Shown in pieces: positions 25,751-64,000 of a stretch of DNA of 64,000 nucleotides. The notes under the pieces were generated by a model that saw nothing but the letters and a program-made list of their open reading frames with translations, was not told where the DNA came from and ran no database searches. The stretch's first letter is position 1. Each line of letters opens with the position of its first letter. The stretch is from Moniliella sp. 'wahieum' (Eukaryota), in contig RSEE01000007.1 in assembly GCA_003971905.1 (NCBI GenBank), positions 372,001 through 436,000 on the forward strand. Direction: 5' to 3'. The position numbers and the translations under genes are program-made.

Positions 25751-26472
25751 TACCTTTTTTTTATCTATCTCTCGTTGGGGCCGGAGTCCCGATGCAGGCG
25801 GGAGAGGGAGGAGGTACCGAAGAGGGAGGGCAAACGCAACGCACTCTGCCTTGCGTCCTTTTATTCTTTCGCCCCCTTCTCCTCTCGTCTTCGCGTGAAC
25901 CACCTCCCACGCTCCCCGTGATCCCCCTTTGCACCTTCACCTACGTTTTCTTTGTTTTTCTTTGTTTTCTTTTTCTTTCCTGCCCCCCCCCCCCCCTTCC
26001 CCCCGAGGGCCCTCCCTCCCCTATCCGTCCCCATCCTATCCACTCTCCACCCTCTCACGCCGTACCCTACCCTACCGCGCTCGCTGTACGTTGTCCATCC
26101 TTTTGACCCGGTTTCACCGTCTCTTGTTATGCTCCCCTGCACACATCCTTCCCTTGGCCTCTCTCGGGCTTCCATCGTGGTCTTGCGTATCCATGTGGCG
26201 AGCAGGGCGCTGCCCTACGCCTTACGTGTCCTCGTAGCTTGCCAGCGCCACCTAGCCCCACTTGACCCTGACCGGTGACCCTGTTGCCCTCCCCTGCTCC
26301 TGGGCCTGCTCACCTGGCACGCACGCCGCCGGATACGTAGATGGCACGGCCTTGCTTGCCTTGGGTTCGGCGTCCGCTTGCCTCGCGTGCGAGGTTGGTG
26401 CGGTACCAGGTTAGCTAGTGTGCTAGTGTACTAGGGTGCTTGTGGGCTAACGCAGGCCTGTCCTCTTGACCA

Positions 26473-26569
26473 CTGTCTACCTGTCTACCTGTCTACCTGT
26501 CTACCTGTCTACCTGTCTACCTGTCTACCTGTCTACCTGTCTACCTTCTACCTGTCTACCTGTCTACCT
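26473..26569. repeat. 8-bp tandem repeat (CTGTCTAC)n, about 12 units, decaying to the right
   Basis: Directly visible: ctgtctacctgtctacctgtctac... Confidence 0.95.
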
Positions 26570-29500
26570 ATCCACTGTCGACCTGTACCTGTCCACCTAT
26601 CCACTTGACCAGTTGTCCACGTGCCCGCTCGGGGGCCACATTACAGGCGATGATGGATGAACGCAGAACGGCTCACAACCCTGCTGCAACCCAACACCGA
26701 GGCCCGAGGCAAGTTGCCCAAGGGTATAGCGCGTGCAAGGGTGTCGCATTCGGTGCTATTGGCTCCCCAACAAGCATGGAAGGGAAACCAAGGCGAGGGT
26801 AGTATAGCGTGCCGGCCGCGGGGTGGCCGGGATCGAACCCAGTGTAACAGTTGGACGTTATGTGGCGCTGGTCCTGGTGGGAAGCCGAAGGTATAACGAA
26901 AGAGAAGACGAGCCGGATGGGGGAAGGGGGGGAGAAGAATAGAATCGATTCATCCTCCCCCCCCCCCCAACACACACACACCTTCCCTTAGGGGTATTGC
27001 ACAAGAAGGACAAATGCACGGTACTAGTAAGGGTCGAGAAACGAGGAGCAAATATACTTCTTCAGTTGCGAAACACGTCGAATGCGACTGGGACCAGATT
27101 CAAGACTCCTGGACGGACTGGTGGTCTTAACTATACCTGTATGAGAAGAGAGAAGATTGGCGCGGCAGGAATGGGGCTGTGGGACATTGGAAGGTGCACG
27201 AAACAAGCATGACATGCCCACATCTACTTAGGAACCCGGCTAATCATTCAAGGAGACACAGACTGCGTCTTACTATATATGGCGGTGTTGTATTCCGACC
27301 CAGCTTAGCCATTTTGTCTCGCACCATGAGGTGGGAGAAGGAACTGGGAAGGGGATATAATGGTCAAGATGGACGCTTTTCTCAGTAGTATAGGAGAGTG
27401 TGGACAGATCCGGGGGAGGGGGCGATGGTGGGGTATTGAAAAAGGACATTCGCTTTTGGGCATGCTTACGAGCGCATAATATGAGGCTGCATGATGAGCA
27501 TATGCCCCCCTTTTGGATGGGAACAGGCGCGGCTATTCACTCTAACCAGTTGGGATTCTGTGCCCCCGCGCGTACTGTGGCTAATGGGGTCTCAACAACT
27601 ATCCGATCCCCAACACTTTGGGTGCCCACACCGACAAATGTGTTTACATACGACGGCACAGCAACATTGTCGGATGTGTGTGGGAGAACTGTTGAGAGAA
27701 AACGGACGTAGAAGGCTACAATAATATGGCAAGTTCGCCAGGAGCATCTCGACAGCAAGTAAGCGCTCTTTAATCCCCCTAGCCATAAGATGACAACACG
27801 TGCAGGGGTACTATACCACCAGGCTGGCCAACAAGATGTTTGAGAACGCTGTGGAAGGGTCTAACTAACGAGCTTCATTACAGGAGGTGGTTCTCCTTTG
27901 AATGCCCACATGGCTACCGCACTCCCAATCAGTTCGTATCCCCCTTCTCCCTCTTGGCTTATTCGCTACACCCACAAATGAGGATGGGACGACAAGAGGT
28001 GTCATATTAGTTTGGCTGATCTCGTTCCCATTTCCGATTTCTTCGTCTAGAGCGTTTCTCGCTACTGCCTGTTCCTTCCACTTCGCACCATGTCCTCTGC
28101 TCATGCTTCTTCCCCACGAACGATTGCTACACCCCTTGGCCTAGTCCGATTCTGGTCTCCCTCGCCTTAGCCCCGACTGTGACAAGAGGCAGCAGCGGGC
28201 TGGGCACAGCCAATCAAAAAGGGGGAGTGTGCGTGATATATACTTTACTCACTGTACTCACTGCACTCACTGCAAATACTTTACGGCCGTTAAGGCGCCT
28301 TGGCCTATGGGCCGGACCCTACGGGACTGCGGGCCCCACCATACCTATAGAAACCCGATCTCAGATCTCAGATGTACTCAGAGCATAAATCAGCACTGCG
28401 GCAGGTCCATATTCAATCAAGTGGCATGTGTCTCGATAGTATCCCTAGGTCTGGCCTTAGCTTGGATCGGACCATTTCGGGTCCGCCGCAGCCCGTGACA
28501 GTCCTTTTGAGAGGTGTTGCGATGGTGACATAGGTGACTATAACTGGGTTCAACGTCGTTGATCAAGACGTTCAAGCTTCAAGCTTCAAGAGGTTCAAGC
28601 TTCGAGCTTCACCCAGGTCATGCGGTCTTGGAGCACTTCCGGCCCTATTACACCTTGGGTCTTACTGGTTACGAGTCCCGACGTAAGCCGCAGTAGCGAC
28701 TAGTATTATAGCCTTCTCTCCTTCTGTATAGCCCTCATCGACCTCATTCTGATGCTTTCTACTGCCAAAACGCCTATCTCTCGACAACAATAGATTACTC
28801 GATTACTCCGCTACTGTGTCTTATACGCTTCAAGCTTCAGGCTTCGACAGCTTCAGCGCTTCAGCCTCCATTGCGGTCTCTGGCATAGCCGGGTGAATGA
28901 GGATGCGGAACGAGGGACGTCGCTACACCAACCTTTGCGTGACAGTGTCATGCCTGTCGAGGCAGTCACATGTCATGTGACAAGTGTGACACTGATGCAT
29001 GTGACATGTGACACGAGTTGGCTTGAGGCAGACGAGCGTCACTAACTTCACTCTCTGCGTCACGAGTGACAGTCACTAGCTTGGGTTCCTTACCTAGCCT
29101 TCACCTAGCAGTCGGCAATCGTGCATTAGGCCTTAGGTATCCACTAGCACACATCCCTTCCGAGCTTCAAATTCAGAACACGGGACTGATCGATTGCGAT
29201 GATCGAGATGATGTCGATACTGTCGATGATGGCCTCTCTGCAAGCTGCATCGAGCACTATTATGCATGTCACATGTCACACAACATCTCAATGTCAACGA
29301 GATGCATCGATCAAAACCAAATTATTCCCTAGATGTTTTCCCCTAGATTTACTGGACACTATTAGCAGTCATAGTCACTTGAAGCTTGAAGCTTGACGCG
29401 CTTGACGGCAGACACTAGTCACTAGTCATTAATCATTGGCCCCAGAAGTCCTAAACGACATGTACCCTGCAGACCGGCAGCATCGTGGGCTTTAAGTGTG

Positions 29501-29853
29501 GATCTCTGATCCTTAGGGTCGCTGGGGTGTGTCTACGCTGATCTGACGCCTATACTATCGCGAGAATCGAATCGAGGATCGAGGGTCGGAGTCTACTCGA
29601 AGCGCGATGAGCTTGATGGGTTTATAGTATTGCCGAATAGTATGGTAGAAACACTTCCTAATCCATGGGATCGCGAGCAAGGGTGCCTTCGGTATAGGAC
29701 CCACTGCAGAAGATTAATAACTTGCCAGAACGAGCTCCTATGCCTCTCTGGGGGGCAAGGCATCTCGGCCAAAAAAACGGGGGGATGGACGAGAATGCAG
29801 AATGTGGGTCTACCATGCACTCTTCCAATGTGCGCGACAAAATGTGCAGTAAC

Positions 29854-30093
29854 TGTTGGCCTAGGGAGCCGGACGGGCAGAAGGATGAGGAGAAGGTGAT
29901 GGATTGGAGCCAGAGTTGGGTCTGGGTACAGAGGCATCTATATAGGAGGCTGGACTAGGCACAGGGACAGTGAGTCACACAGGAGAGAGTGCAGGGCACA
30001 GGGACAGTGACACGCAGGGACGTCAGCGTGGAAGCCGATGGAACCGAGGCGAACCTGGTCTACCGACTGGGAGCCAGAGGATCACAGTCAACA
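29854..30093 (-). repeat. LTR copy (3' LTR in minus orientation)
   Basis: TGTTGGCC...AGTCAACA, 240 bp. Contains CTATATAG, TGAGTCA and a duplicated GGCACAGGGACAGTGA. Confidence 0.92.
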
Positions 30094-30809
30094 CCCCCGC
30101 TGGCCAGGGAACCCGGAGACATCGGTTGTGGGATGAGCTCCTGCCAGTGGATGTAGAGAGGGGAGGACTTGAGTGGCAACCGGGACGAATGGCCTGGAGT
30201 TGTGCATGGCCACACGACTGGCCTACACCCGCTGTCCAGGATGACACCTGAAACGAGCCGAGCGCTTGTGGTTGGTGTATTGTGCGACCGCCAGATGCTT
30301 GTAGAAGTCTTAGAAGTAAAAGTAGTAGGGGTTGCGCCCCGAAGCGATTTGGTGGGCAAAAGTAAAAAGCACCAGTTATAGGTGTAGTGAAAGAAAATTG
30401 GGAAACTTGGAGTAAATGCGGTCCAAGGTCGTTTGGCATCAAAATTGGATGCGTTTGGTAGTTGTTTGGTTCCGCATGCCTGGTGCCAGGGGTCCATTGG
30501 GCATGGGAAATGAACGGGCGCTATGCGTCAACCGTCTTGATCTGTTTGGGTTCTCTTGTTGTTGAAAAGAGGAGTGGAAGAAGTTGGGTGACCACCCCCC
30601 CCCATCCTTTCCCCAGGTGCCCGGATGAATTGGCAATCCGGGGCGTTAGCCGTGGGTGGGGCACTTGATGAGCAGCCACCCCCGCTTTCTGCGATTCGCC
30701 TGGCCGTTTTGTCGTTGGAGGAATTTCGTCTCGTTGACGATACCCGACACGTTTTGTTCCGTCGTGTGTTGTCCCTAAAAATCATTGCCCCATCTGTGGG
30801 GGACGAGTG

Positions 30810-30890
30810 TGCCGATTGTGGCGGTAGTATGCCGATGTGGCGGTAGTATGCCGATTGTGGCGGTAAGGTGCCGATTGTGGCGGTGGTGTT
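30810..30890. repeat. Four copies of a ~20-bp unit (TGCCGATTGTGGCGGTA..) inside the element's internal domain; repeated at about 31960-32045
   Basis: Directly visible tandem units. Confidence 0.85.
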
Positions 30891-31004
30891 GTTGGGCGGG
30901 AGGACGGGTGTGTCTTGTGGGCTTGGCGGCTTAGCTTGGGCTTGTAGGCTTGGGGGTGGGCTTGCTTGAAGAGCGCCCCTTCCGGGGGGATCAGATTGTA
31001 GCTC

Positions 31005-31244
31005 TGTTGGCCTAGGGAGCCGGACGGGCAGAAGGATGAGGAGAAGGTGATGGATTGGAGCCAGAGTTGGGTCTGGGTACAGAGGCATCTATATAGGAGG
31101 CTGGACTAGGCACAGGGACAGTGAGTCACACAGGAGAGAGTGCAGGGCACAGGGACAGTGACACGCAGGGACGTCAGCGTGGAAGCCGATGGAACCGAGG
31201 CGAACCTGGTCTACCGACTGGGAGCCAGAGGATCACAGTCAACA
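31005..31244 (-). repeat. Shared central LTR copy
   Basis: Same 240-bp sequence, flanked by internal-domain sequence on both sides and lacking a TSD. Confidence 0.92.
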
Positions 31245-32160
31245 CCCCGCTGGCCAGGGAACCGGAGACATCGGTTGTGGGATGAGCTCCTGCCAGTGGA
31301 TGTAGAGAGGGGAGGACTTGAGTGGCAACCGGGACGAATGGCCTGGAGTTGTGCATGGCCACACGACTGGCCTACACCCCCGCTGTCCAGGATGACACCT
31401 GAACGAGCCGAGCGCTTGTGGTTGGTGTATTGTGCGACCGCCAGATGCTTGTAGAAGTCTTAGAAGTAAAAGTAGTAGGGGTTGCGCCCCGAAGCGATTT
31501 GGTGGGCAAAAGTAAAAAGCACCAGTTATAGGTGTAGTGAAAGAAAATTGGAAACTTGGAGTAAATGCGGTCCAAGGTCGTTTGGCATCAAAATTGGATG
31601 CGTTTGGTAGTTGTTTGGTTCCGCATGCCTGGTGCCAGTGGGGTCCATTGGGGCATGGGAAATGAACGGGCGCTATGCGTCAACCGTCTTGATCTGTTTG
31701 GGTTCTCTTTGTTGTTGAAAAAGAGGAGTGGAAGAAGTGGGTGACCACCCCCCCATCCTTTCCCCAGGTGCCCCGGATGAATTGGCAATCCGGGGCGTGT
31801 AGCCGTGGGTGGGGCACTTGATGAGCAGCCACCCCGCTTTCTGCGATTCGCCTGCGCCGTTTTGTCGTTGGAGGAATTTCGTCTCGTTGACGATACCGAC
31901 ACGTTTGTTCCGTCGTGTGTTGTCCCTAAAAATCATTGCCCCATCTGTGGGGGACGAGTGTGCCGATTGTGGCGGTAGTATGCCGATTGTGGCGGTGGGG
32001 TAGTATGCGATTGTGGCGGTAAGGTGCCGATTGTGGCGGTGGTGTTGTTGGGCGGGAGGACGGGTGGTCTTGTGGGCTTGGCGGCTTAGCTTGGGCTTGT
32101 AGGCTTGGGGGTGGGCTTGCTTGAAGAGCGCTCCCCTTCCGGGGGATCAGATTGTAGCTC

Positions 32161-32400
32161 TGTTGGCCTAGGAGCCGGACGGGCAGAAGGATGAGGAGAA
32201 GGTGATGGATTGGAGCCAGAGTTGGGTCTGGGTACAGAGGCATCTATATAGGAGGCTGGACTAGGCACAGGGACAGTGAGTCACACAGGAGAGAGTGCAG
32301 GGCACAGGGACAGTGACACGCAGGGACGTCAGCGTGGAAGCCGATGGAAACCGAGGCGAACCTGGTCTACCGACTGGGAGCCAGAGGATCACAGTCAACA
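32161..32400 (-). repeat. LTR copy (5' LTR in minus orientation)
   Basis: Same sequence apart from homopolymer indels, followed by the TSD GTAAC. Confidence 0.92.
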
Positions 32401-32549
32401 GTAACTACTAACTGGCCCCTTGCCCCCCCATCATGCAGCACGTCTCGTCCAACGCAGACCATCGATAATCGATAACCTGCGCGCCTGAGCGCTACTGTAA
32501 ACCTGTGGGGATATAATACTGATGCAGAACATGTCCCGTGTGGGAGTGA

Positions 32550-34039
32550 CTAGTGAAAGGGGTACAGAGTAGATGCTTTGCTGATATATGACATGAGCAA
32601 TTGCAGTAGAAGTACATGGGCACTTAGGCATGTGTGCATTGAAAGCACGTGATGAAGGCTGCGAGTCTTGATGTAGGAGGGGGGGGAAATGAGAAGGGAA
32701 ATAAGAAGCAGACGAAATGAGGTGGGTAGATCACGAGGAGAATAGAGTATGGGGGATGTTGAACGTTGAATTCGACGTTGAGGAGCGCAAGGCAAGGAGT
32801 GCATTAAAAGTGACGGTGCCAGTTCGCTTGCATGAGGTGGGGAATCGAAGGCCAGGGCGTAAGAGCCAGAATAACATTTGGGATCGCACACTCGCGGGTC
32901 TGCGACCATGTCGTGGGGTGTACTGGCTGGAGGCGGGGTGCTTTCGCTTGCAGAGTCGAAGGAGATGGAGGAGACGGATGATTGGCGGGAGGAGCTAAAC
33001 ATCGACTCGGAACGGGGTGTGGGGGGCGCAGAAAGTTGGAGGGGGGGCAGGTCCAGCATCATGGGCTCGGCATCGCAAACCTCACTCCGACGAGCGTAGT
33101 ACTGTCGGACCAGCCAAGCAGCAGCAAAGCGCTTCTTGTTGAGCACAGCAAGTGAGTTGCTAGCCCCTTGAGAAAGCAGCTCCTGGAGTGTCTGCACCAT
33201 CTCGACTGACGGCCCACGGACCGTCGATGCATTGGGCTCCTGGGTGAACCCGCAGATAGTCCGAGCGAGAGCGTGGCAAGCAGCAGCGACTGCGGCAGAT
33301 GAGGCACCCACGAAGGCACGGTGATAAAGCGTTAGTGACCCAGGTATGTGCCACCTGGTCCACCTCGGAAGGGTCCTGAGGGCGGCGCACTTGAACGCAA
33401 GCCAGTCATTGATACTCGGTTGGCCTAAGCTCCAGTCGAGGGTGGCGAGGATGTGGTTCATCATCTGAATGAAGGCGGGACGCTAAACGTGTGACGGCAC
33501 AGAGCACGGCACTCGCTCACAGTTGGGATGCGTGCCTTGGCGCTGTCGTACTTGCAAGCCAGCATCAGACTGCAGCAGGCGAGAAGTTGGTAGTGCTCTT
33601 GAGCACGACTCGCTTGGACATATACCGGTCGATCATATTGACGGTTGGTAAAGGACCGATTGAGATGGCAAGTCATATGATGGTGAACCTCGACCAAAAA
33701 GTCGATGAGGTAAGTACGCATGTCCCACCCAATCTCTGGCTGGGCGTCAATCAAGGGAGTCAGGAGCCGAGGCAGCCTGGATGAAGGATAAGGTCAGTCT
33801 GGGGGGTGAACCTCAGTCAACACATAAGGGGGAGAAGCGAGCAACATACCTCAATGGTAAGCATGTGGTTGATGGCTTCTTCTTGATATTCATCCTCAAA
33901 CAGCCAGTCGGGAACAGGCTGAGACTGTGGAACGAGGGAGGGAAGGTTTTGGTGGGGAGACTGGGGAGGCAGGGCAGCCGCCAGTCGGGGAGATTTGCAT
34001 CGAGTGCGAACGGGTCATTCCGACGCAAGCAGTGGCCAT
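32550..34039 (-). CDS. G1-type cyclin (Cln/Puc1-like) with a C-terminal PEST-like tail
   Basis: EDEYQEEAINHMLTIE, intron 33849..33777, IDAQPEIGWDMRTYLIDFLVEVH, EHYQLLACCSLMLACKY, HILATLDWSLGQPS and an S/P/T-rich tail. Start and stop are approximate because of frameshifts. Confidence 0.85.
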
Positions 34040-51042: not shown

Positions 51043-51500
51043 CGGGATGCTCTTCTTTTTCATCACTTTTCTCGGGGTGGCTGTTATGGCGACACCATAT
51101 ATGAGCATTGTCTTCCGGAAAAAACCCGAGACCGAGAGGATGCCATTTGTTTGATGTTCATGATGATTCTCGTCTATTCCCAGCACGTTCACCCTTGCAG
51201 TCTAGGTTGCTGGATACATAGCTTGGAGAAAAACCCGATAGGCAGGCCGTGTGAGAGGAAGGCCACATGCATACGGCTCTACCCGTAACCAATGGGCCAG
51301 AAGCGTCCGGAAGCCCCAGGAATGTGGTCCGTAGATCACATTACCCCTTGAGGGATTCGGGCACAAACGAGGCCATGGTTTGCGTATATACCGGAAGGTG
51401 TACACGAGGAAACTGCAACATGTGTTGACACCGTGGGCAGAGGAAGTGGAGCACTTAGTCACCCCATGGCAAATACGTCGTCGGGCCGACGGCGGCAAGT

Positions 51501-51598
51501 GGGCTCATGGTGTAGTGGTATCATGCCTCTTTCGGGAGTTGCCCGAGTGGTTAAGAGTTCGCTTAGAGGTGGTCGGGGTTCAATTCCCGCTGAGCCCA
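51501..51598 (+). tRNA. tRNA-Pro(CGG) with a 27-nt intron (51537-51563)
   Basis: Acceptor stem GGGCTCA/TGAGCCC. D-arm TGGTGTAGTGGTATCAT. Anticodon stem CCTCT/AGAGG with loop TT-CGG-G and the intron after position 37. T-loop GGTTCAATTCC. The T-stem is one base short, consistent with a dropped C in GCGGG. Confidence 0.88.
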
Positions 51599-51599
51599 C

Positions 51600-51604
51600 T
51601 TTTT
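51600..51604 (+). terminator. RNA polymerase III T-run terminator
   Basis: TTTTT immediately downstream of the tRNA. Confidence 0.75.
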
Positions 51605-51974
51605 GCGTGGGTTTCCATGATCCTGCTTCTAACCGCGGCCCAGGGGTCAACGTGGCAGGCGGAATTGGGAATGAATGGGTTCGACATCTGAAATGTGAGG
51701 ACTGGATGCTGGCTGGCGCTGGGCCGCAGCCGGAAGCGTCAGGCCGTGACGCGTGGCGTGTGACGCGTGACCGGTCAGGTGACCAGTGACTGCGAGCTAG
51801 TGAGCCTAGTGAGGCCAGTGAGGGCCCAGGGCCTCAGGCCCTGAGGCCTTCAACTGAGTGTACTGATTCCGCCGTTGGAGCCGTGGCACCGGGGCGGGGT
51901 GGCTGCGTAGCCCTTTGCGCTACCACCACCATCTCTGTGCCCGTATCTGCTACCTCCGTTGGCCCTGCACTGCA

Positions 51975-54900
51975 ATGGGTGCGTGGCCTTCTTCCATGCG
52001 GCTGCGCCGTGTGCTGCGACTGACATTTCTTGGCCAGGTATTCCCAAGTTCTTCCGACATGTGTCGGAACGCTATCCGATGATCTCTCAGCTGATCGAGG
52101 GCGAGAAGATCCCCGAGTTCGACAACCTCTACCTCGACATGAACGGTATCATTCACATGCTCTCATCCCAACGACGATGACGCTTCCTTCCGCCAGACAG
52201 ATGCCCAGCTCTATGGCCATTTTTGCTTACATTGAGCATCTTTTCGTCATCATCAAGCCCAAGAAACTCATGTTTATGGCCATTGATGGTGTCGCCCCAC
52301 GTGCTAAGATGAACCAGCAACGCTCTCGTCGTTTCCGCACCGCTCAGGAGGCAAAAGAGGTTAGGACAAGGCTCTCAAGCGTGGCGAGGTTCTCCCTGAG
52401 GAGGACGCGTTTGATTCGAATGCCATTACTCCTGGTACTCCCTTCATGGCCCGTCTATCTGAGCAGCTGCGCTACTTTGTCTCCAAGAAGATCTCGGAGG
52501 ATGCCGAGTGGCGCGGCGTGCAAGTTATTCTTTCCGGCCATGAGGTACCCGGTGAGGGGGAACACAAGATCATGGAGTACATTCGTCTCCACAAGGCCCA
52601 GGAAGGTTACAACCCTAATATTCGCCATTGTTTGTATGGGTTGGATGCCGACTTATCATGCTTGGACTCGTCAGTCACGACCCTCATTTTGCCCTCCTCC
52701 GTGAGGAGGTCCAATTTGGCCCAAGGCGGAAGGGCAAAGGAACGTGAGTTTCACGCTCTCTTAAACTTGATCTTGAGACGAAAAGTACTGACTCCCTTGC
52801 TTCCAGGCTCCAGAGCCAGAACTTTTTCTTGCTCCATTTATCCTTATTCCGGGAATATCTTGACCTCGAGTTCTCCGACCTCAAGTCAACTCTGCCTTTC
52901 CCTTACTCACTAGAGTCGATCATCGATGACTTCATCCTGATTTGTATTTTCGTTGGGAACGACTTTTGCCGCATCTTCCTGATTTACACATCAACGAGGG
53001 TGCCCTCGAGCTTCTGTTTGGCATCTACAAGAATATCCTCCCCACTGCGGGTGGGTACTTGAATGAGGGCGGCGTTCTTCGTGTCGATCGCCTTCAGCTT
53101 CTTCTCGGGGGGTTGAAGGAGTTTGAGCGCAACAAGCTTGAGGAGGCCGTGTCGGATGCTGGTCCTAACTTGACCCGTTCGGTGGCCAAGTCTAAGGCTA
53201 AAGCGGTCAAGAAGTCCCGCGCTCGTGGTGACCTGGTTCTCACCCCTTCTCAGAAGGACGTATTTGACCAGGTCAAGACGTTTGTTGAGGCGCAGCAGTC
53301 CAACCAAGGTACTACTCCATCCGAAGTAACGATTCCTTCGGACCAAATGGCTGCAGCAGAGGACCGGGCATTCCTCCAAAAATTGACCGAGAGTTTGCAT
53401 CTCAAGCTCTCCTTGGATGACTATGATCCTGAGACGGACGGGACGAGGACCACATCGGGATGTTGCCTGTTTGGGCTGATGGCGACTCGAGTTCAGACGA
53501 GACGGACCCCATTGCCTTGGCCGAGTCACAGGCAGCGATTAATCGTGTTCTTCAGAAGTACTCTCAAGCCACAATTGAGACGACTGCCGAAGCGGCTCAG
53601 GAGGATCTTGACAAGCAACGACAGGACAAATTGGACGCAAGTATCACTACCATCAAGACGAAATACTACAAAGAGAAGATGGGTATTGATCTCAAGGACC
53701 AAAAGGCGATCGACATGTTGGCGTATCGCTACATCGAGGGTCTGCAATGGGTGTTGTTCTATTATTACCGCGGTGTTGTTTCATGGGGTTGGTTTTACGA
53801 TTACCACTATGCACCGCGTATTAGCGACATCGCAGATGTCAGCGACATGAAGTTCAACTTCGAGCTGGGCACGCCATTCAAGCCGTTTGCACAACTAATG
53901 GGTGTGCTACCTCCCCTTTCCAAGGCGTTGGTCCCCGTTCCGTTTCAGCAGCTTATGACGGACCCCACCTCGCCGCTAATCGATTTCTATCCTATGAACT
54001 TTGAGTCGGACCTCAACGGAAAGAAGGCGAGCTGGGAGGCAGTCGTCAAGATTCCCTTCATCGAAGAGGCGCGCCTGATCGCGAGCTGGAGAAGCGCGAT
54101 GCCCTCTTAGCGACGAGGAACACCGCCGCAATTCGTCTCAACCAGCAACAAGTTTCTCGTATGATGAAGAATTTGAGCACCCCCTCTCCTCGTCGCTACC
54201 GGGGGTGTTCCCTGATCTACTCCATGCCCGGGCCAAGGCTCAGCCCTTTTATCTCCCTCCCCTCGAGTAAACAAGTTGCACACGACTTGTGCAATGGGGT
54301 ACACTTGGGTGCCAATGCTCTACCCGGCTTCCCTTCGCTAAAGACTTACCCCACGTGGCCGAGCTCGACTTCCATCAAGTGAACCTTTTCCAGCAGGACA
54401 GCCGCAATCAGTCGATGGTCATCACGATTGAGAGCCGCTATGAAGGAGCGACGACGGATGATGTGGCCAAGGCAACCATTGGAATGCGCACCTTTGTGAA
54501 CTGGCCCTTCCTTCAGGAGGCACTGGTGGTTGCCGTGAGCGATGCGTACTTCAAGCATGAGATGGGCCTGATTGGAGGCAAGCGTGCTATTGTGAGCAAC
54601 GAGCACTCGCCCGAGGCGGCCCGCGATTGGATGCGGCAAGCTCGCAAAATCGAGCATACTTACGACAAACGCTTCGGTGTTGTGATTGGCGAAGTGACTA
54701 TGCTACTCCACACCCGGCCACTCAAGGGCCTGCAGCTTATGGATGATAGCTCGTTCCTCAAAGAGTATGAGCATGACCCCAAGATGGAAGCATTGCAAGC
54801 ACTACAACTTTCTGTCTCGTCGGTCAGCCAGGAAGACTCGCGTTACATGGAGCGCAAGGCCCTGCCTCTCGACCGTGAATTTCCCGTTGGCGAACACGTC

Positions 54901-56351
54901 TTCTTCCTTGGGAAGGAACTCTATGGTGCTCCCGCCACGGTTGTGGCCTCTAACAAGACGGCAATGGCACTGGAATTGCGAGCGTTTGTGTTGCAAGCTA
55001 AAGAGAACCAAGCGCTGGCTAAAATTGTCCAGAGCCGTTCCCTGACAAGTACTTTACTTCGTCAATGGTGCCAGACTTTTCGCCCACCCGCTTGCTCTCG
55101 CTCGGGTCACATCGACTGTGCTGATTCAGTACAAGGAATCACGGGTTAACTTGGGCCTGAATCTTAAGTTTGAGGCCAAGTCGTTGAAAGTACTGGGGTA
55201 CTCGCGAAAGAACCTTCACGGCTGGGAGTTTTCCGAGAAGGCAATCGAGCTCATCAGTGAGTACAAGGCGGCATTCCGGAAGTGTTTGCTGCGCTGTCCC
55301 CGTCGCATGGCAAGGACGAGGTGCGCACGGCTGAAGACATTTTCGGAGAAAACGCGGCGTCCCGGATGGAAGCTGTCAAAGCTTGGGTCAAAGAGAAGAA
55401 AGTCCGTGACCTCGAAACAGTGCCGCTCTTTGCCGAGCAGCTCGATCGTGAGACTGTGCAGACTATCGAAGGCTTCACAGAGCGCATGGGCTGGATGCGG
55501 GCGTCGCAGGCCTCATCTTCAGACCAAGGCCAAGGCCCGACAGGGGTCAAATCGATGGTCATCAAGAACATCCCGCCAGGCAGTCCTCAAGCCGAGCCAC
55601 TCGGCCTTCCGTCTCAAGGGTCAAACGTTCTCGCTCGGGGACCGGCTTGTGGTGGTACAGGACTCGGGTTCGGTGCCTCTTGCGGCAATGGGGGTCGTTG
55701 TGGGGCTGAATGTGAGCTCGATTGACGCAGTGTTTGACTTCCCCTTCCTTGGAGGTTCTAACCTCCAGGGCCGGTGTCGCCCGCACTGTGGGGCTACAGT
55801 GCAATTCCACCAAGTGCTGAACATGACGGCGGCTCAGTTTGTCGCCGAAAGCAACTCTAAGGGCGCGGCACCCTATGTGCACCAGGACGCATTGACCCGC
55901 ACCCTGCGTGATGTTCAGACAGGCAGTGCCCGCGGGCATGGGGCCAGCACCACCACCTGACGCCCGTGGCCCGACCTTTTCGACGGGCCCGGTTTCCAAG
56001 CCGCCTTCGGGCTTCGTACCAGCCAAGGGTCCACCGCGCATTCTCTCTCGCCCGCAGGGGCAAGCGCCTGCTTCGGGGGTCCTCCCCGGCACTCCTACTC
56101 GGCCACCGCTTCAGGCGAAGCCCACCCGTCGCAGCTTCGGGCCCAGGCATCGGCTGCGGTGGATCCCCGTCTGGCCCTGTTGAACGGTGTGTCTGTTCCG
56201 CCGCTTTCGGCCGAGTCGGCGCAGATCGCGTCCAACGGCCGTGGGCGGGGCCGGGGCCGGGACCGGCGGTCCCCGTGGACGTGGACGTGGGGCCGCACCT
56301 GGACGTGGTGGCCATATCAATGTTGCTCGCCCTGGCCCTCAAGCTGAGTGA
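51975..56351 (+). CDS. XRN1: Cytoplasmic 5'-3' exoribonuclease Xrn1
   Basis: ATG G, intron 51979..52037, GIPKFFR. Then [80 protein letters not shown] and NLGLNLKFE (Xrn1-type C-terminal domains), ending in an RG-rich tail. Confidence 0.96.
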
Positions 56352-56699
56352 TCTGGTTGAAGGCCAGAGTTGGGTTTTGCTGGTTTGTATTGGCATGATG
56401 TCTGCTGTCACGTTGGACGTTATCTGTACTTGTTGCAACCTTCTGCACCATGGCTCCCATGCCACTGGAATTGTATTGTCTCGCGACTTACCAATGAAAA
56501 GTGTGAGACCAAATCATAAGCGATCGATACCTACAGGCCTCATCCTCATCCAGCCTACACTGGATTTTAACCGACATGAAGACTATTTTGGCCTGTTGTA
56601 CGAGGGAAATCCTCTATTCAATCTGGTGCATGGAGACATGGGTAGTAACGTAGGATCCTCCCACTTGGTAGGTCGGGAAAGCTACTACCGTCGCGCGGA

Positions 56700-59152
56700 A
56701 GGCGTGGAGGTCCAGCTCCAGAGCGCATATACTTTTTGTTAACAAGCAACCCAGCTGGTAGTGCATGAGCTGCACCTGGGGGTCGAAGTATCCGTGGCGG
56801 TGATGTTGTTGCAGCTGGCGATGTTCGTCCACTTGGTCACTCGACACGGATGAAGCAATTCTCCTGAACAGTGGGTCGGCTGAGCCGGGAGTGTACCGTC
56901 ATCAGAGGCGTGCTGCATGCATTGCCCAAAGACGACGGCAGCTGGGGTAGCATAGCCAATGACGGCAGAGGGAAGACTATATTTGGGACCAAGTTATCAT
57001 CGCAACGAGCTAAGCAAAGGCAATTCCTATATACTTTGCTCCATCGGATGAGAAAACTCATGGATAATGCATCACCGCCGTCCTAGTCCATGTGGGCACC
57101 GAGTGCCGAAGCAGTCCTCAATCCTAAGACCGATGCTTGTGGACCCGAGAGCGTGTCCGATCCCGAAGGAACCGAGACTGTCCGTGCACCGCCTGCCCCT
57201 AGGCCCGAAAGTCCAGCACCGCCTGCAGACGGCATGGCAACGTAGCCTGAGGGCAGTCCAGGGGGGGGAGGATGGAAGCCTTGCATGTGCGGGGAGGAAT
57301 ATCCGGAAGGGACAGGCGCGGGTGGTGCCGCGAACGATGGTCGGGCAGGAAGACGGGCGCCCCCTGGCGCCATAGGAAGGGTAGCCATTCGTGGGCCCCG
57401 GTTGGGCGGGGGAGTGAATAGCCCAAACCGTAGGAAGATGCCATGGGAACACCAGTAGCGACCCCAGGAGCGAGACTCGCGGTTGGCGGCGCAGCCTTTC
57501 CGCCTCGTGTGGGGCGGCGACTTGGGCCGTAGCGTGTCGACAACTGGGTCGTACGGCAAGACATTCGATCGGTCTTTGAGCTCGCAGCCGGGCGGATCGA
57601 CGGCAAAGTACGAGTCGTACTCAGATTTAATGTATGGGCGTGGTTCCTGCAGCGCAGGCAGGGATACGTGCGGATGAGGTGGCAGTCCGGCTCCTTCTCC
57701 TGCATCAAACGCAGCGATGATTTCAGCCTGGGTCTGTGGATGGGAGTGAAGCTCCTTCTCTGGATCGGGACCAGGCCAGCCAGGAGCGTCAGGGCCAACC
57801 GACTGGCCAACAGTCAACCACCCAGGACGGAGATTGTCGTTCGTACCAAACAACTCGATCCGCCGCGTCCCCTGACAAAAGTTTTCGATCAGCGAGTAAA
57901 GTTCGGGGGGTTTGGCTTGCATCTTTTGCCGTATAGTGCGGGCTACGCGCAGCTCGTCTTCCAGCTTGGGGTCTGCCCCGGGATTACCATGGTCCTTGGG
58001 TCCTGAAATAGGAGGGGGTGACCAGAGAATTACGTCCGTGTCAATGTTGCAGTGAACAAAGTTGGTGTCCACCGACCTGCGCACCGTCCCGCGAATGCCC
58101 ATCAGACAATGTTGGATGGTGCGAGTCAGTCCCGACGTGTGGAACTGCATCGAGGAAGCGGGCGGATCTTCTGATGTGTTGGAATCTTCGGCGCCACTGC
58201 CTACCGATACGCACACAATGTCCTCGCATCGACGGAACCCCCATTTGCTAAGAGCTCGCGCCTCTCTCTAGACCATCTGCCGCACCCGTCCCGACCCACA
58301 GAAAGACAAAGCTGAGGTAAGGGAGCGTTAGTACATACTTTGGAGGGACTCGTGGGCGTACCTTTCCTTGGCTGCTAACTGAGGGATGGGAAGTGCAGCA
58401 ATTTGCTCCCAGGACCAAAATTGGTCTTCTGGAAGTTCAAGAGGCTCCGCGCCGACACCGGACATGGGCTCGGGGAAGACGGAGCGAGCAGTAGGCAGAG
58501 ATTCCCAGTGATACGTCTCCAAGGGTGCATCGATCAATACCACATCGTACTTGACGGGAAGCAGAGCACCAAGATGGAAGAGGGAAGGTGCATCTTGTCC
58601 TGGAGGAGGGGGGCGAAGTAGAGAGGAACGCAGGTCGGCGGTGGCGTATGTGGGTGGGTGGGCATGTTGGCGCACAAGTTGCTGCTGCGCCTCAACCAGC
58701 TTGCGTAGCTTGGGGTACTCGGCAAACCGACCATTGAGGGACCCATTGCGCACCGCACCGCCAGGCAGCTCCGCACACATCGTATCGACGAAGCGCTGCG
58801 CATAGTCGTTACGCACCGTCTCCTCTTCAGGAATGAAGTTGGGCCCCAACGTAGGATGCTCATTGGAAGGAGGCAGCAGCATCAGTTCCCATCCTGCGTC
58901 GTTGTTTCCTTCTGCACATGTGAGGGAGGATAAATGGATGAAGATGGTGCCAAGTCTGCGCAATATCGCTCCCAAAGCGGTAGAGCGGATGCGCGCGGGA
59001 AGCGGGCGTTCGAACACCGCAGCAGGCCCGGGGCCTGACGATGGCTGCGGGAGAACGGCATGTCGCGCCCGAACCTGTTCCCGCAGAGCAGCCAGCTGCG
59101 CCCTCCTGTTCTGCGACACCGGCGCTGAAGCAGAAGCATTCTGAGCAGCCAT
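56700..59152 (-). CDS. KAR4: METTL14/Kar4-like non-catalytic subunit of the mRNA m6A methyltransferase (MT-A70 family)
   Basis: RNDYAQRFVDT, FAEYPKL, YDVVLIDAPL (degenerate DPPW), WSWEQI, intron 58361..58312 (TACTAAC), FVFLWVG, WGFRRCEDI, HCLMGIRGTVRRSVDTNFVHCNIDTDVI and IENFCQGTRRIELFG. The 3' end is uncertain. Confidence 0.9.
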
Positions 59153-59579
59153 CCTGTAACCACGATGGTTGGCTTGGGGTAGAGCGGGATGGGGCGGGAT
59201 AGAGGGAGGCACACGCGTAATAATCCGCTGCCCGCGTTTGACCTGGGCGGAACCTGTCACACATCCATTACCCCAAATTTTGCCAAATCCGGCCTCCTTC
59301 TCTGTCAGGTCCCTCCTCCAGCAGCTTCAAGGAACCAAAGTAAACCTAGCGATTAGCAACTAGTAACGGGCTGTCCAGATGATGCACATGTTATGCGCTT
59401 CTCCTACAGCCAGGGGGTAGCGGCACCAGTTTTGCCTGGGGTTACTGTCAACTCTGTCAAATGGAGCATTTGCGCTTATCCTAGCGCAGTTGACATGGAT
59501 GATTGTAATTGCCATGCCTGGTATGCCTTGGGTCGCCCAGCTGGACCACATCGATTACGCACGATCAGGGCGGGGAAGA

Positions 59580-60075
59580 TTACTTGGCCAGGCCAGGGTA
59601 GAGCTCCTCTTTGAGCGTAACACCAAGCTCCTTGCGCACAGGTTCGAGGACGTCAAGGTATTGCTGGTACTGCTCCTTGTTCTCTACCTTGGCCTTAAGA
59701 GCCTCGAATACACGAACAGCGGTTGGGTAGTCGTTGACCCTGCGCGCAGCGCGAATGATAGCCTCAGCGACTTCGGGCGAGGGGACCAGGTCGTATGAAA
59801 AGGAGTTGTTGAAGCCGCGCTGGACCTCGAACAGGTCTTCAGCCTCACTGAAGAACTTGACGTAGCGGGCGGTGAACTCCTCGTACGTCTCCTCCTCGTG
59901 GTGAGCGGAGTAGTTGCGAACAAAGACTGGCAGGGGGAAGGGTTAGTTGGGGGCGAGGAAGGGGGAGGATCAGGGAGAAAAAAAACGCACGAGCGGCAGG
60001 GCGGCGCGCAGCGGGAAGAGCAGCGCGCGTGGCAGCACGGGCAACAACGGCAGAGCGGACGACACCGGAAAGCAT
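59580..60075 (-). CDS. COX6: Cytochrome c oxidase subunit VI (COX5A family) precursor
   Basis: Arg/Ala-rich presequence, intron 59990..59927, then HEEETYEEFTARY, DLFEVQRGFNNSFSYDLVPSP, RAARRVNDYPTAVRVFEALKAKVEN and KELGVTLKEELYPGLAK*. Confidence 0.95.
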
Positions 60076-62708
60076 GGCGGACAGGGACAGGGACAGGGGC
60101 AGGGGCAGGACAAAGGACAAGGAGGCGGAGGGCAGAAGTTGGTGTTGCCGCCGTCCAGGCGCGAACACACCCGAGATGTGGGTGCAGCAACCCTACCGGC
60201 ACCCCACTAGCTTCTGCGATACACTGCCCCCGGCAAGAGGATGGCCGGCTTAGAAATAATTCATTTCCGTCTTCCGCTCTGCCGGCGGAATGAGAGCCAC
60301 CAATCTGCCCACTTCAGCATGGACACCGGCTCCATATATCGCTTGGTGTCAACAGAACTACTGTTGATTGAACCTTAGGGCCCAAGGCCTATCAAAGTAC
60401 AGAGTATTGAGTATGCACCTCTGCTGCTCAGCAAAGGTTTGCTTCTGCTGCACCACTTGCTGGAGGAAGGTGGTCAGGCTGTTGGTGGAAACGGGCGCGG
60501 ATACCTGGAGAACTATGGTAAACGAAAATGTATTTATCGCGGTCAATCATCTTTTGAATCCATATCATTGACAGAGCTTAAGGCTGGGACAGGGGGAACG
60601 CTACGTCTAAACCGAACCGTTCATCTTGCGGGGGTTACTTGGAAGCGCCACTAAGGTCAAGGAACCAGGGGGATCGCCAGGATATCAGGACCCTCCGGTT
60701 CTCGCCATCCGGTCCCGTACCCTAGATCATCTTTCATGAGCGGTGCATCCTCACTTTTCGATGAGATGGGTGTCGCGGGGGAAGAGGCCCAATGCAGGGT
60801 GCAGAGACTGATATAAGGAAGCTGTTGCATATGGCGCACATTCGGCAATTTTTCCTTGTTGTATTGCCTGGGTTGTATGTTTTTTTGTTATCAACTTCCT
60901 GGGCTTTTTTCATGTGTAATCACCTACTTATTCTTCTACCCTCACTCAACACAGACTTTTCCCCTCCGCATCGCAAAGTGGACAACCCCTTCTGCACACC
61001 CTGATTTCCCCCCGGCTATATGATCTTTTGGAGGGATCGCTAACGAGAAAAGAAATAGGCGAATATGGCGGGGAAATATAAGAGAGCAGAGGGAGGATCG
61101 ATCTACACATCTCCGTTGGGGAGAAGCGGTTGCTTGGCGTAGACAGTTGCTGCGGTAGCTATGGAAAGCTCTCGGAGAGGCGACTGTGTAGATAGCCCAT
61201 TCCAACATTTTGTCGCACGCATCTCGCCTTATTCACCCCCAATTTTTTTTCTTGCAGTGTGTTTGTTGGCAATGTCTTTCTCCGACTTTATTCCTCTCAC
61301 CCTTTAGCGATGTTGCCATCTTCCCGTCGTCGACTCCACATTTTGGTCTGCTCCTCGCTCAGTCTCACAACTGACATGCATGCCGTACAAAATACATCAA
61401 CCCTTCATATAAGTCATCCGGGCTGAAGGTATACCGGAAGAGGGGGTTCACAGGAAACGCGAGATAAAAGAGGGAAACTGTAGATGAATTCCATATCCTT
61501 CTGAAGGGGAAACTCGAGAGCTCAGTCCACATCGATGCATATGCGCTCCTACCATATGCCGCCTACCCTATTACACCTTGTCCCTGATTCGCATTCGATC
61601 GTTTTTTCAACCTGGCCAACCTTGGCATGCCTCTTCTCCTCAAAACTTTGGTTCTGGAGCATGGTTGGCGACGTTAACTTGGTCTGTTTAGCCTTCCTGC
61701 TCTTGATATACAGCCTTAGACCTTAGGCTTTTGGTCTTACTAAGCCTCTGGTATACAAAGCGCCTGAAAGCTTGTTGGATTCCAGTACTGACCAGGCCCG
61801 TGGCCAGTGCATGATGCCTATACGAGCACTACATAGTCTTCATGGCTTGTCGTGTGGCATATTCTACTGCGGGGCGGGGAGACGTTGCGGGGATGCTGTG
61901 TGAGTAAAATGATGATCAATGAAGGAGATCGAAGCTTGATGAAGCTTTTGCGCTTGAAGCTTGATGCAAAGTCGGGTGTTTCTTCCGATAATCGATAACT
62001 TTGTTGGTCAAGAAGATCTGCGCACGGAGAAGTACTTACTGCGGGCAGTGTGCTGGAGTGCCCGGTGCTACCCAGATCCATTGGCCTGGTAAACCTGTAA
62101 AGCTTAAAGCTTGTACACAAAGCGAACGCGTACTGCCCTCCAAGGCGCACGCTGCAATGGGGCACTGCGCAACGCACGCTCTGCCAGGAGGGCGCGAGGC
62201 TGGATAGGTGTGACATGTGACAGGTGACATTTGACATGCGACACGCGACATGTGACGTGTGGACATCACTCGGCCCCTGGCTCAGAGCGCCCCCGTGCCC
62301 CCGGCCATGCGCCAACATGGCTCAGGTCGGGGCAGCCGAACACAGCAAATCACATCAGCGCATCCTGCGCATCATGCATCGCCCATCACCCGCCACGCCT
62401 CCGCCGCAGCATCATGCATCGGCGCATCGGCGGAGAATAAAATAAAACGCGCAATTTTTGTTTTTCCCCGAGACTCGCCTCGTTCGCCTGGGACGGCGCC
62501 TGCCTGCCATTCTCAAATCCTCGTGTCTCTTGTCACCATGTCACCAACACTAGGGGACCGTAAATATGTAACTCCCCAACACTTGTACGTTAGAACAGCG
62601 GCATTGCATGCGACGGCCACGTACTCCCAACCAGCCGATCCCGGTCGCACGCACCCGTGGAAGACAGAACGACGCCACCACCATACCTTCATCTCGTCTC
62701 CATCTCAC

Positions 62709-64000
62709 ATGTCGATGCCAAGCGAAGACGCTGACACGCCTGTGCGCCCCCCTCCCTCTCGCACGGCGCCAAACGCGGAGGCCCGGACTCTGGCTCCCAT
62801 CCTGGGCCCGGTCCCGGTCTCGGCTCCGGTTTCGGCTCCGGTTCCCGTTCCGAGTCTACCTCAACCTCTACCTCAGTCTCGGCAACTCCAGCTCGTCCCC
62901 CTGCTTCTGCTTCTGCTTCCGCTTCCGGTGCCGCTCCCGCGTCTCCCACCGCTCTTCCTCCTGGGCCCGTCTCCCCTCAGCCAAAGACACACACCCACTC
63001 ACCCATTCGCCGTCTCCTCCGCGACACACATCCACCCTCTGCTCCTGCTTCTCGCGGTCGTCTGCCTTCTCTGGTTCAAGGATTTGGCTTTGCTGAACAT
63101 TATGGCACCCCTCCCCACCCCCGTGGGCGTAGTATCGAGAGGCTTTCTGGCGGACTCGGTACCTACACATTCTCTTCCACTCCAAACCGCTCTTCGCGTC
63201 CCTCTTCCCTCACTCGTCCTGCTCGTCGTGACGACGTGACGTCCAACCCAAGCCCGCGTACCAGCATTTCTGGAGCCTCCGGTGTGCCTGCCGGATACCT
63301 GGCCCCCTTACCTTCCGTTACGTCCCGGCCGAGCGGCACCGCCCACGATGGTCCATCCGACTCTCTGCCGCGTCTCCCTCCTTGTCCGCCCCCCCCACCC
63401 ATCCTAGGCATTTTTCCGCCGTTCATGTTTCCCTTTCGCCCGTTTACACGGGTAATGATGCTGAAGGTGCCCGCTACGGCCCCGTCCCCTCCTCAATTGG
63501 TCCCCAACGACGCATGACATACGCCCCAGGTTACGCCCCCGCCTACACCCCCCAATCTGCCTCCGCCAGTCGCGACTCACAGATGCATCGCTACACGCGC
63601 TCATCTTTGTCAGGCCCAACCCCAGATCGATGGCATACTTCCCGCATTCTTCTGCGTATCATGACCACCCCGTGGACTTTCCCTACCCTTCTCATCCGCG
63701 CCGCTTTCGGGATCACGACCCAACCCTTCGCGCCTCCCCTGCTGGCCTACCCTTGCCTGGTGGTGACGTTCCCCCCGGGCCTCTGATGCGATGGCAGGAT
63801 TCCGAGCCGCATATCTCACCGTTTCCGCAACAACATCATGCGGAGTCCTTGTCGTACCTGCCTTCTCCTCACCCTGGCTCTCTTATGCACGACCCTCCCG
63901 ACTCATCCAGGATTTACGCTTCGCCACATGAGCGCCTCGGATGGGCTAGCAGTTACCCAAATTTACCCTCGGGGCCATTCCCTCCCCAGCTGGCCCACCC
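62709..64000 (+). CDS. N-terminal part of an unidentified Pro/Ser-rich protein, truncated at the window edge
   Basis: Continuous low-complexity, coding-like sequence in shifting frames from ATG 62709 (MSMPSEDADTP), preceded by a promoter-like region. No domain recognised. Confidence 0.5.

Follow-up and report, generated by a model that had tools for sequence, protein, structure and literature searches.

A probable tandem, three-LTR form of a non-coding LTR retrotransposon in the basidiomycete Moniliella sp. 'wahieum'

The DNA analysed here is a 64-kb stretch of Moniliella sp. 'wahieum' (assembly GCA_003971905.1, contig RSEE01000007.1, positions 372,001-436,000 of the forward strand), called the window below; all coordinates are those of the window. 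The only long repeat within it was an array of about 2.55 kb, which lies in intergenic DNA approximately 145 bp beyond the stop of a cyclin-like open reading frame. In this array three LTRs of 240 bp each alternate with two internal domains of 911 and 916 bp, and together with the flanking GTAAC target-site duplications (TSDs) it extends from 29849 to 32405. A first-pass annotation of the same DNA had described three 240-bp TG...CA LTRs with TGTTG/CAACA termini, two internal domains of about 0.91 kb and one GTAAC duplication around the whole 2.55-kb unit. All three elements of that description were reproduced, at the following positions:

29849..29853, no strand: left TSD, GTAAC, by direct reading; matches 32401-32405
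29854..30093, plus strand (tentative): LTR1, 240 bp, TGTTG...CAACA; identical to LTR2
29939-29946, plus strand (tentative): TATATAGG within LTR1
29960-30021, plus strand (tentative): 18-bp unit, 3.5 copies, inside LTR1
30094..31004, plus strand: internal domain 1 (INT1), 911 bp, non-coding, G/T-rich (G 34.8%, T 25.2%)
30101..30118, plus strand: candidate PBS, led by TGG, 7 nt past LTR1; the counterpart in unit 2 is 6 nt past LTR2
30806..30884, plus strand: 20-bp tandem repeat, 4.0 copies, in INT1 (Tandem Repeats Finder); counterpart in unit 2 at 31957-32040
30984..30995, plus strand: candidate PPT, purine-rich GGGGGGATCAGA, separated from LTR2 by a gap of 9 nt and not adjoining the LTR
31005..31244, plus strand: LTR2, the middle LTR common to both units, 240 bp, 100% identity with LTR1
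31245..32160, plus strand: internal domain 2 (INT2), 916 bp; 0 substitutions and 23 indel events relative to INT1
32161..32400, plus strand: LTR3, 240 bp; two one-base homopolymer indels and no substitution relative to LTR1
32401..32405, no strand: right TSD, GTAAC, by direct reading

The array shows the typical marks of an LTR retrotransposon: near-identical direct LTRs, TG...CA ends with short terminal inverted repeats, and a TSD within the range of 4-6 bp. All three LTRs end in TGTTG...CAACA, which amounts to a terminal inverted repeat of 5 bp. The marks of the L3I2 form are present as well, since LTRs and internal regions alternate, the middle LTR is common to both units and there is a single outer TSD. 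Both inner boundaries are junctions of LTR and internal domain, with neither flank sequence nor an extra TSD between them. By simple arithmetic an exact flanking repeat of 5 bp is expected by chance about once in 1000 cases, and the same holds for a 5-bp terminal inverted repeat. Because the boundaries of the array had been fixed beforehand by repeat alignment, the occurrence of both features is not expected as a coincidence. A monomer of LTR, internal domain and LTR would measure 240+911+240 = 1391 bp. Neither a second copy nor a solo LTR nor a coding partner was found elsewhere in the 64-kb window.

The one match listed in a search of sequencing runs was a wastewater metagenome run (X1), with a 0.05 share of words; there were no RNA runs among the matches listed. 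When positions 29300-31004 were compared with the contigs of this run, two small contigs were found to cover 29853-30093 at an identity of at least 99%, and coverage was confined to the LTR plus the last 20 nt of the internal domain before it; the uncovered left flank and remainder of the internal domain tell neither for nor against further copies. One contig stops exactly on the final base of the LTR, 30093. The 20 extra letters on one contig equal the end of the internal domain apart from one G-to-A change, and a junction that differs by one base implies that the LTR and its junction exist elsewhere in a second version. One contig from the wastewater run is the sole sign of further copies; exact-pattern scans of a metagenome collection for two stretches of the LTR, 23 and 24 nt long, gave no match.

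LTR1 and LTR2 are the same across all 240 nt, and LTR3 is distinguished from both by GGG/GG at 29864-29866 and AA/AAA near 30042. Between one unit and the other there were 0 substitutions across 1151 aligned positions; for INT1 and INT2 this result was obtained in three of four scoring schemes, the fourth giving at most 3. RIP-like mutation is inapplicable to units without substitutions. The internal domains are distinguished by their indel events, which involve 31 bases. Homopolymer-length changes account for 17 of the 23, confirming the earlier observation that the copies differ mostly in this way, and the remaining six are GT, G, C, GGTGG, T and CT.

Whether these indels are real differences between the copies is another matter. 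The XRN1 gene in the same window (52037-56215) has at least 6 frame changes in 4.18 kb. Since the protein coordinates are contiguous or overlapping, the frame changes are not introns. They show that the assembly is prone to indels, so that most of the differences between units are probably sequencing errors and not true divergence. The contigs of the wastewater run point the same way, matching the version of LTR1, LTR2 and INT1 at all three of the indel-variable sites that they cover. Error by itself may nevertheless not be sufficient for the array, whose 23 events per 915 bp correspond to about 12.6 per kb per copy, some 8 times the density of frameshifts in XRN1. The LTRs look cleaner partly because they contain no homopolymer runs of 4 or more; INT1 contains 24. 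The proposal of a young element, of very recent origin, is supported. A practical warning for this assembly is that indels between repeat copies are not usable as divergence.

No gag, RT, RNase H or integrase was found in the array: none of its 23 open reading frames of at least 50 aa had a credible Pfam match, the sole one listed being BKRF4 (E 0.15), and the earlier failure to recognise any such gene was thus upheld. Retroelement domains were also missing from 150 of the 176 reading frames of at least 130 aa in the surrounding window. The other 26 start at 51352-63465, and five of them, scanned separately, gave XRN1 and MT-A70 domains only. No autonomous partner element was found in the window among the frames scanned. 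The label TRIM-like, used in the first-pass annotation, suits the element in its lack of coding capacity and its LTR architecture. As to length, the monomer is too long for the classical definition of a TRIM (at most 1 kb) and falls below the extended limit of <1.5 kb, which PMC13570524 attributes to Gao et al. 2016. LARDs, given as >4 kb in the same source, are far larger than a monomer of 1.39 kb.

Helenus and Cassandra are, like the Moniliella element, small non-autonomous LTR elements, and according to Kojima 2024 (PMC10886601) the fungal Helenus elements have 5-bp TSDs. Their LTRs, however, contain a module derived from tRNA or 5S RNA (PMC10886601), whereas a Rfam scan of 29700-32550 with E values up to 5 gave no tRNA or 5S match in the LTR or internal domain. 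Membership of Helenus, Cassandra or Ajax, which is defined by LTR sequence of tRNA or 5S-rRNA origin, was therefore rejected, as was a small-RNA-derived LTR in general. The scan returned four matches, RsmY three times and snoZ242 once, all far under the gathering scores. Read by eye, the end of the internal domain and the start of the LTR resemble the consensus of a tRNA A-box/D-arm. This candidate was discarded, there being no Rfam tRNA match; the variant from the wastewater run alters the stretch.

The candidate priming signals do not lie in canonical positions. The first TGG after the LTR is found at a distance of 7 nt in unit 1 and 6 nt in unit 2, and the usual offset of a PBS is 0-5 nt. 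If the complement of the candidate PBS is taken as the 3' end of a tRNA, it would call for C1:G72 as the acceptor pair, a pairing that to our knowledge is rare among eukaryotes; the sole tRNA gene in the window (51501-51598) has no match to the candidate by eye. On the plus strand GGGGGGATCAGA stops 9 nt short of LTR2, and on the minus strand GCGGGGG (30094-30100) adjoins the LTR. With PBS and PPT outside their canonical positions and a G-run abutting the LTR on the other strand, the strand assignment is tentative. RNA folding of the internal domain gave no signal relative to 20 shuffles per strand (z of +0.87 for plus and -1.16 for minus) and so is of no help on orientation. Self-priming of the Tf1 type was rejected for both orientations: no perfect complement reached 7 nt, and duplex energies were no better than those of shuffles, being equalled or bettered by 88 of 300 on the plus strand and 262 of 300 on the minus strand.

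We consider it probable that the element belongs to the non-coding, non-autonomous LTR retrotransposons and that its tandem L3I2 form is real; this judgement does not extend to the route of formation. It might be thought that a 1151-bp segment without any mobility had simply been duplicated in place, by replication slippage or unequal exchange, to give 2.2 copies, the 'LTR' being the partial third one. Any repeat of 2.2 copies would show one part three times and the remainder twice, and the non-canonical PBS and PPT fit such a segment. Yet its boundaries coincide with TG..CA, with the 5-bp terminal inverted repeat and with the exact 5-bp flanking duplication, and in the wastewater run the same 240-bp unit stops on the same final base and occurs with sequence variants. 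A local duplication is thus extremely improbable. The array might also owe its second unit to the assembler, which would have traversed the LTR-internal loop of an ordinary two-LTR element twice. This would suit an error-prone assembly, and the excess of indels per copy over the XRN1 frameshifts looks as if the array were poorly supported or polished. On the other hand, contiguity over 64 kb and errors of the indel type suggest long reads, which would easily span 2.55 kb, and L3I2 is a common natural form, with PCR confirmation from elsewhere (PMC4717578). We regard an artefact of this kind as very unlikely.

How a real tandem arose is a separate matter. Insertion of a dimer and unequal LTR-LTR recombination, the two origins named in the first-pass annotation, both agree with a tandem bounded by a single TSD, but the pair is incomplete: a third route has been shown in fungi, in which cDNA anneals at a resident copy and Rad52 is required (PMC11042837). 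In the mechanism that we favour, an autonomous element would have provided integrase in trans, which inserted a single copy and made the 5-bp duplication, and homologous recombination at the LTRs would later have added the second unit. Either sister chromatids would have exchanged unequally, the 5' LTR of one with the 3' LTR of the other, or fresh cDNA would have annealed at the resident copy by a Rad52-type reaction, by analogy with Tf1/Tf2 of fission yeast. The competing route, which differs in the mode of formation only, is the insertion of a ready-made dimer in a single step: a tandem cDNA would have come from template switching, from read-through transcription or by way of an intermediate that was multimeric or circular. 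It accounts for the single TSD around the array and for units without substitutions; recombination after insertion, however, equally leaves one TSD, and the locus does not separate the two. The route shown experimentally in fungi, according to PMC11042837, is recombination at a resident copy. Taking everything into account we think a preformed dimer rather unlikely. If the array is granted to be real, recombination after insertion becomes the likelier course, and one-step insertion would be a lesser but appreciable possibility.

The arrangement is genuine but already well known, and the element adds to it. Tandem forms have been reported from plants, Drosophila, Schizosaccharomyces pombe and Saccharomyces cerevisiae (PMC4717578, PMC11899658, PMC11042837). 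The statement in the first-pass annotation that they come mainly from plants and some animals was right for plants and Drosophila but omitted the fungi, where Tf1/Tf2 of S. pombe and Ty1/Ty5 of S. cerevisiae are examples. Among maize tandem TRIMs L3I2 is the commonest form (63 of 93, PCR-confirmed; Gao et al. 2016, PMC4717578). Zma-SMART, a maize TA-TRIM, has a monomer of a few hundred bp and a plant host (PMC4717578), compared with 1391 bp and a basidiomycete in the present case; the likeness is one of form, and none of sequence would be expected. Tandem arrays are also on record for Cassandra (PMC4717578) and LTR-11_DR (PMC10886601). In rice there are tandem LTR elements bounded by only one 5-nt TSD, and for the insertions TLI1 and TLI2 the account in PMC11899658 likewise leaves the origin undecided between complex insertion and recombination. 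The rice tandems selected in that study encode retrotransposon protein domains, unlike the Moniliella element.

The tandems of Tf1/Tf2 and Ty1/Ty5 are likewise fungal LTR retrotransposons parted by one common LTR. Tf tandems with a common internal LTR have been made experimentally by Rad52-dependent single-strand annealing and are present in wild S. pombe, as described in PMC11042837. These yeast elements have coding capacity and autonomy, and Tf1/Tf2 prime themselves (PMC11042837), whereas the Moniliella element is non-coding and has no self-priming complementarity. By analogy, the Moniliella array could have arisen in the Tf manner, by a Rad52-dependent reaction in which cDNA annealed to a copy already present. 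A more far-reaching version, which we hold to be unlikely, sees in the array a fresh natural product of such integrase-independent retrotransposition; the family, non-coding and active at present, would belong to a basidiomycete lineage that has been little sampled, and the displacement of PBS and PPT (7 and 9 nt) would reflect an unusual choice of primer and not decay.

TRIM and LARD elements have been annotated in basidiomycetes, for example in the Boletales (PMC5689174). These too are non-coding LTR elements of Basidiomycota, but they appear there as automated class counts, with no tandem forms described. For non-autonomous LTR elements in Ustilaginomycotina there was no match in the open literature searched. 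The array adds a fungal non-coding example of L3I2, a form otherwise documented for coding yeast elements and plant TRIMs; the locus opens no new question. Its importance is modest: it indicates recent activity of a non-autonomous LTR retrotransposon in a basidiomycete whose XRN1 shares only about 41-43% identity with that of the closest named relatives. Should the more far-reaching version given above prove true, the family would offer a simple natural system for tandem formation and trans-mobilisation beyond the model yeasts.

A tandem array of the L3I2 form, with three LTRs, two internal domains and a shared middle LTR, is the sole long repeat of the 64-kb window, in which no further copy of the LTR or the internal domain was found. 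The features below were defined with a repeat finder, with BLASTN searches of the window using the individual parts, and with pairwise alignments:

Features of the array (TSD, target-site duplication; INT1 and INT2, internal domains of units 1 and 2)
29849-29853: left TSD GTAAC, directly left of LTR1
29854-30093, + (tentative): LTR1, 240 bp
30094-31004, + (tentative): INT1, 911 bp
31005-31244, + (tentative): LTR2, 240 bp, identical to LTR1
31245-32160, + (tentative): INT2, 916 bp
32161-32400, + (tentative): LTR3, 240 bp, two one-base homopolymer indels and no substitutions relative to LTR1 and LTR2
32401-32405: right TSD GTAAC, directly right of LTR3

All three LTRs start with TGTTG and end with CAACA, and the inner junctions contained neither an extra duplication nor flank-like sequence. 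The TG..CA ends and the 5-bp TSD identify the locus as an integrase-mediated insertion of an LTR retrotransposon. Because the monomer (LTR-internal-LTR) measures only 1391 bp and is without an ORF to which a Pfam family could credibly be assigned (0 of the 23 array ORFs of at least 50 aa), it is non-autonomous. The first-pass annotation had described the same structure and had recognised no gag, reverse transcriptase, RNase H or integrase, and both statements are borne out. Neither these proteins nor a protease were found in the 150 ORFs scanned among the 176 of at least 130 aa in the window, and no small-RNA module was found in the array.

The firm statement about divergence between the copies is the lack of substitutions. 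Between INT1 and INT2, three of the four scoring schemes used for alignment gave none and the fourth at most three, while 23 indel events separated the two domains, 17 of which were changes in homopolymer length. This pattern resembles the errors that long-read or flow-based sequencing leaves in a consensus rather than mutation, a reading based on three lines of evidence. One is the gene for the 5'-3' exoribonuclease XRN1 (52037-56215, + strand), which shows at least six successive changes of reading frame. Across these the protein coordinates relative to three homologues are contiguous or overlapping without gaps in the DNA, indicating frameshifts and not introns; the apparent cause is assembly error of the indel type and not a pseudogene. 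Another is that contigs of X1, a wastewater metagenome run, match the LTR1/LTR2/INT1 version at all three indel-variable sites covered. Finally, homopolymers of at least 4 are absent from the LTR but number 24 in INT1, which partly explains the cleaner look of the LTRs. However, the indel density of the array (about 12.6 per kb per copy) is roughly 8-fold that of the XRN1 frameshifts (about 1.4 per kb), which counts against error alone: either the repeats were polished worse, as we infer, or a few of the differences are real.

Three routes are known that can give rise to the single TSD around LTR-I-LTR-I-LTR. Unequal exchange in which the 5' LTR of one sister chromatid or homologue recombines with the 3' LTR of the other would leave such a structure. 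So would annealing of new cDNA at a resident copy, a Rad52-dependent and integrase-independent process that has been shown experimentally for Tf1/Tf2, with such tandems present in wild isolates of S. pombe (PMC11042837). In the third route, discussed in PMC11899658, a preformed dimer is inserted as a unit. The evidence at the locus does not discriminate among them, as was likewise the case for the authors of that rice study (PMC11899658). If the array is real, priors from the yeast work would make recombination after insertion the probable origin. The main risk to the array itself is an artefactual third LTR created during assembly, which we consider very improbable.

The array is tentatively assigned to the + strand. 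The first TGG lies 7 nt after the LTR in unit 1 and 6 nt in unit 2. Taken to be complementary to the 3' end of a tRNA, a candidate primer-binding site (30101-30118) keeps the conserved C61 and implies a C1:G72 pair, which is rare in eukaryotic tRNAs. The purine-rich stretch ahead of the next LTR stops 9 nt before it. A G-run adjoins the LTR on the opposite strand, where, however, the other LTR is not followed by a TGG. Since TATATAGG in the LTR lies in a palindromic context, it does not fix the strand. Self-priming was unsupported in both orientations, and RNA folding of the internal domain gave no signal on either strand. By eye, the end of the internal domain and the start of the LTR (30996-31027, 32152-32182) resemble a tRNA A-box/D-arm; Rfam reported no tRNA there with E values allowed up to 5, and the X1 variant alters the stretch.

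The window is fungal, hence eukaryotic, DNA. Its products include a Ulp1 protease, MT-A70, XRN1, a bromodomain protein and ATP synthase epsilon; the best named matches of XRN1 were from Ustilaginomycotina and Agaricomycetes (about 41-43% identity), and two other proteins reached 51-54%. A gene for tRNA (51501-51598, + strand; Rfam 40.2 bits), at which ARAGORN, reporting no tRNA in the window, made no call, probably has an intron, given its length of 98 nt. The array occupies non-coding DNA and ends about 145 bp past the stop codon of a minus-strand ORF of 310 aa (32553-33482). This ORF itself matched no Pfam family, and the one homologue found for it in the database (54% identity across 35% of the query) has a cyclin C-terminal domain. 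The right TSD is directly followed by TACTAAC, a pyrimidine-rich stretch and CAG (32406-32440, + strand), by eye the shape of a branch point and 3' splice site, at a place where no gene was identified on the + strand. Non-coding DNA to the left carries short 7-bp tandem units TTCAAGC and inverted counterparts TTGAAGC (28563-28611, 29378-29405), which form a near-palindromic lattice. An 8-bp microsatellite, (CTGTCTAC)n, of about 15 units (26449-26583) lies within a 3.7-kb stretch (about 26.1-29.8 kb) without an ORF of at least 130 aa.

One public run, X1, shares words with the array stretch, and its contigs were compared with 29300-31004. The LTR is covered there by two short contigs of at least 99% identity (depth 2.4-3). 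One of them continues upstream of the LTR for 20 letters, which match the end of the internal domain apart from a G-to-A change, and the same contig has A-to-T at 29930; the other ends exactly at the final LTR base, 30093. A slightly different LTR and internal-domain/LTR junction thus exist outside the Moniliella assembly, which, on thin evidence, fits a mobile family. One of the two contigs, 143 nt long, forms a closed 113-nt loop joining 30093 to 29981, a position in the LTR about 40 nt downstream of TATATAGG, and the other stops at 29983; the loop may reflect either an internal duplication in a variant LTR or an artefact of the graph at low depth.

Ages were bounded by taking the substitution rate that PMC5689174 applies to fungi, 1.05e-9 per site per year, together with 3 events as the 95% Poisson bound. 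By this arithmetic the lack of differences across 1151 bp makes the duplication younger than about 1.2 million years, and their lack across 240 bp makes the insertion younger than about 6 million years. The first-pass annotation was thus right to call the array young, though the bounds are loose; its interpretation as a tandem TRIM-like element also largely stands, the finding itself being ordinary. Tandem LTR elements reportedly occur in bivalves, according to one study. They are widespread in plants and Drosophila (PMC11899658) and are also found in S. pombe and S. cerevisiae (PMC11042837); in maize, L3I2 accounted for 63 of 93 TRIM arrays, and this form was verified by PCR (PMC4717578). The monomer exceeds the size limit of classical TRIMs and falls only within the extended limit of <1.5 kb. 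TRIM and LARD classes have been argued to form a continuum (PMC13570524), and both are routinely annotated in basidiomycetes (PMC5689174). A narrow search of the open-access literature, which leaves absence unproven, found no report of non-autonomous LTR elements in Ustilaginomycotina. The element therefore belongs to an already known kind, in a host that has been little sampled.
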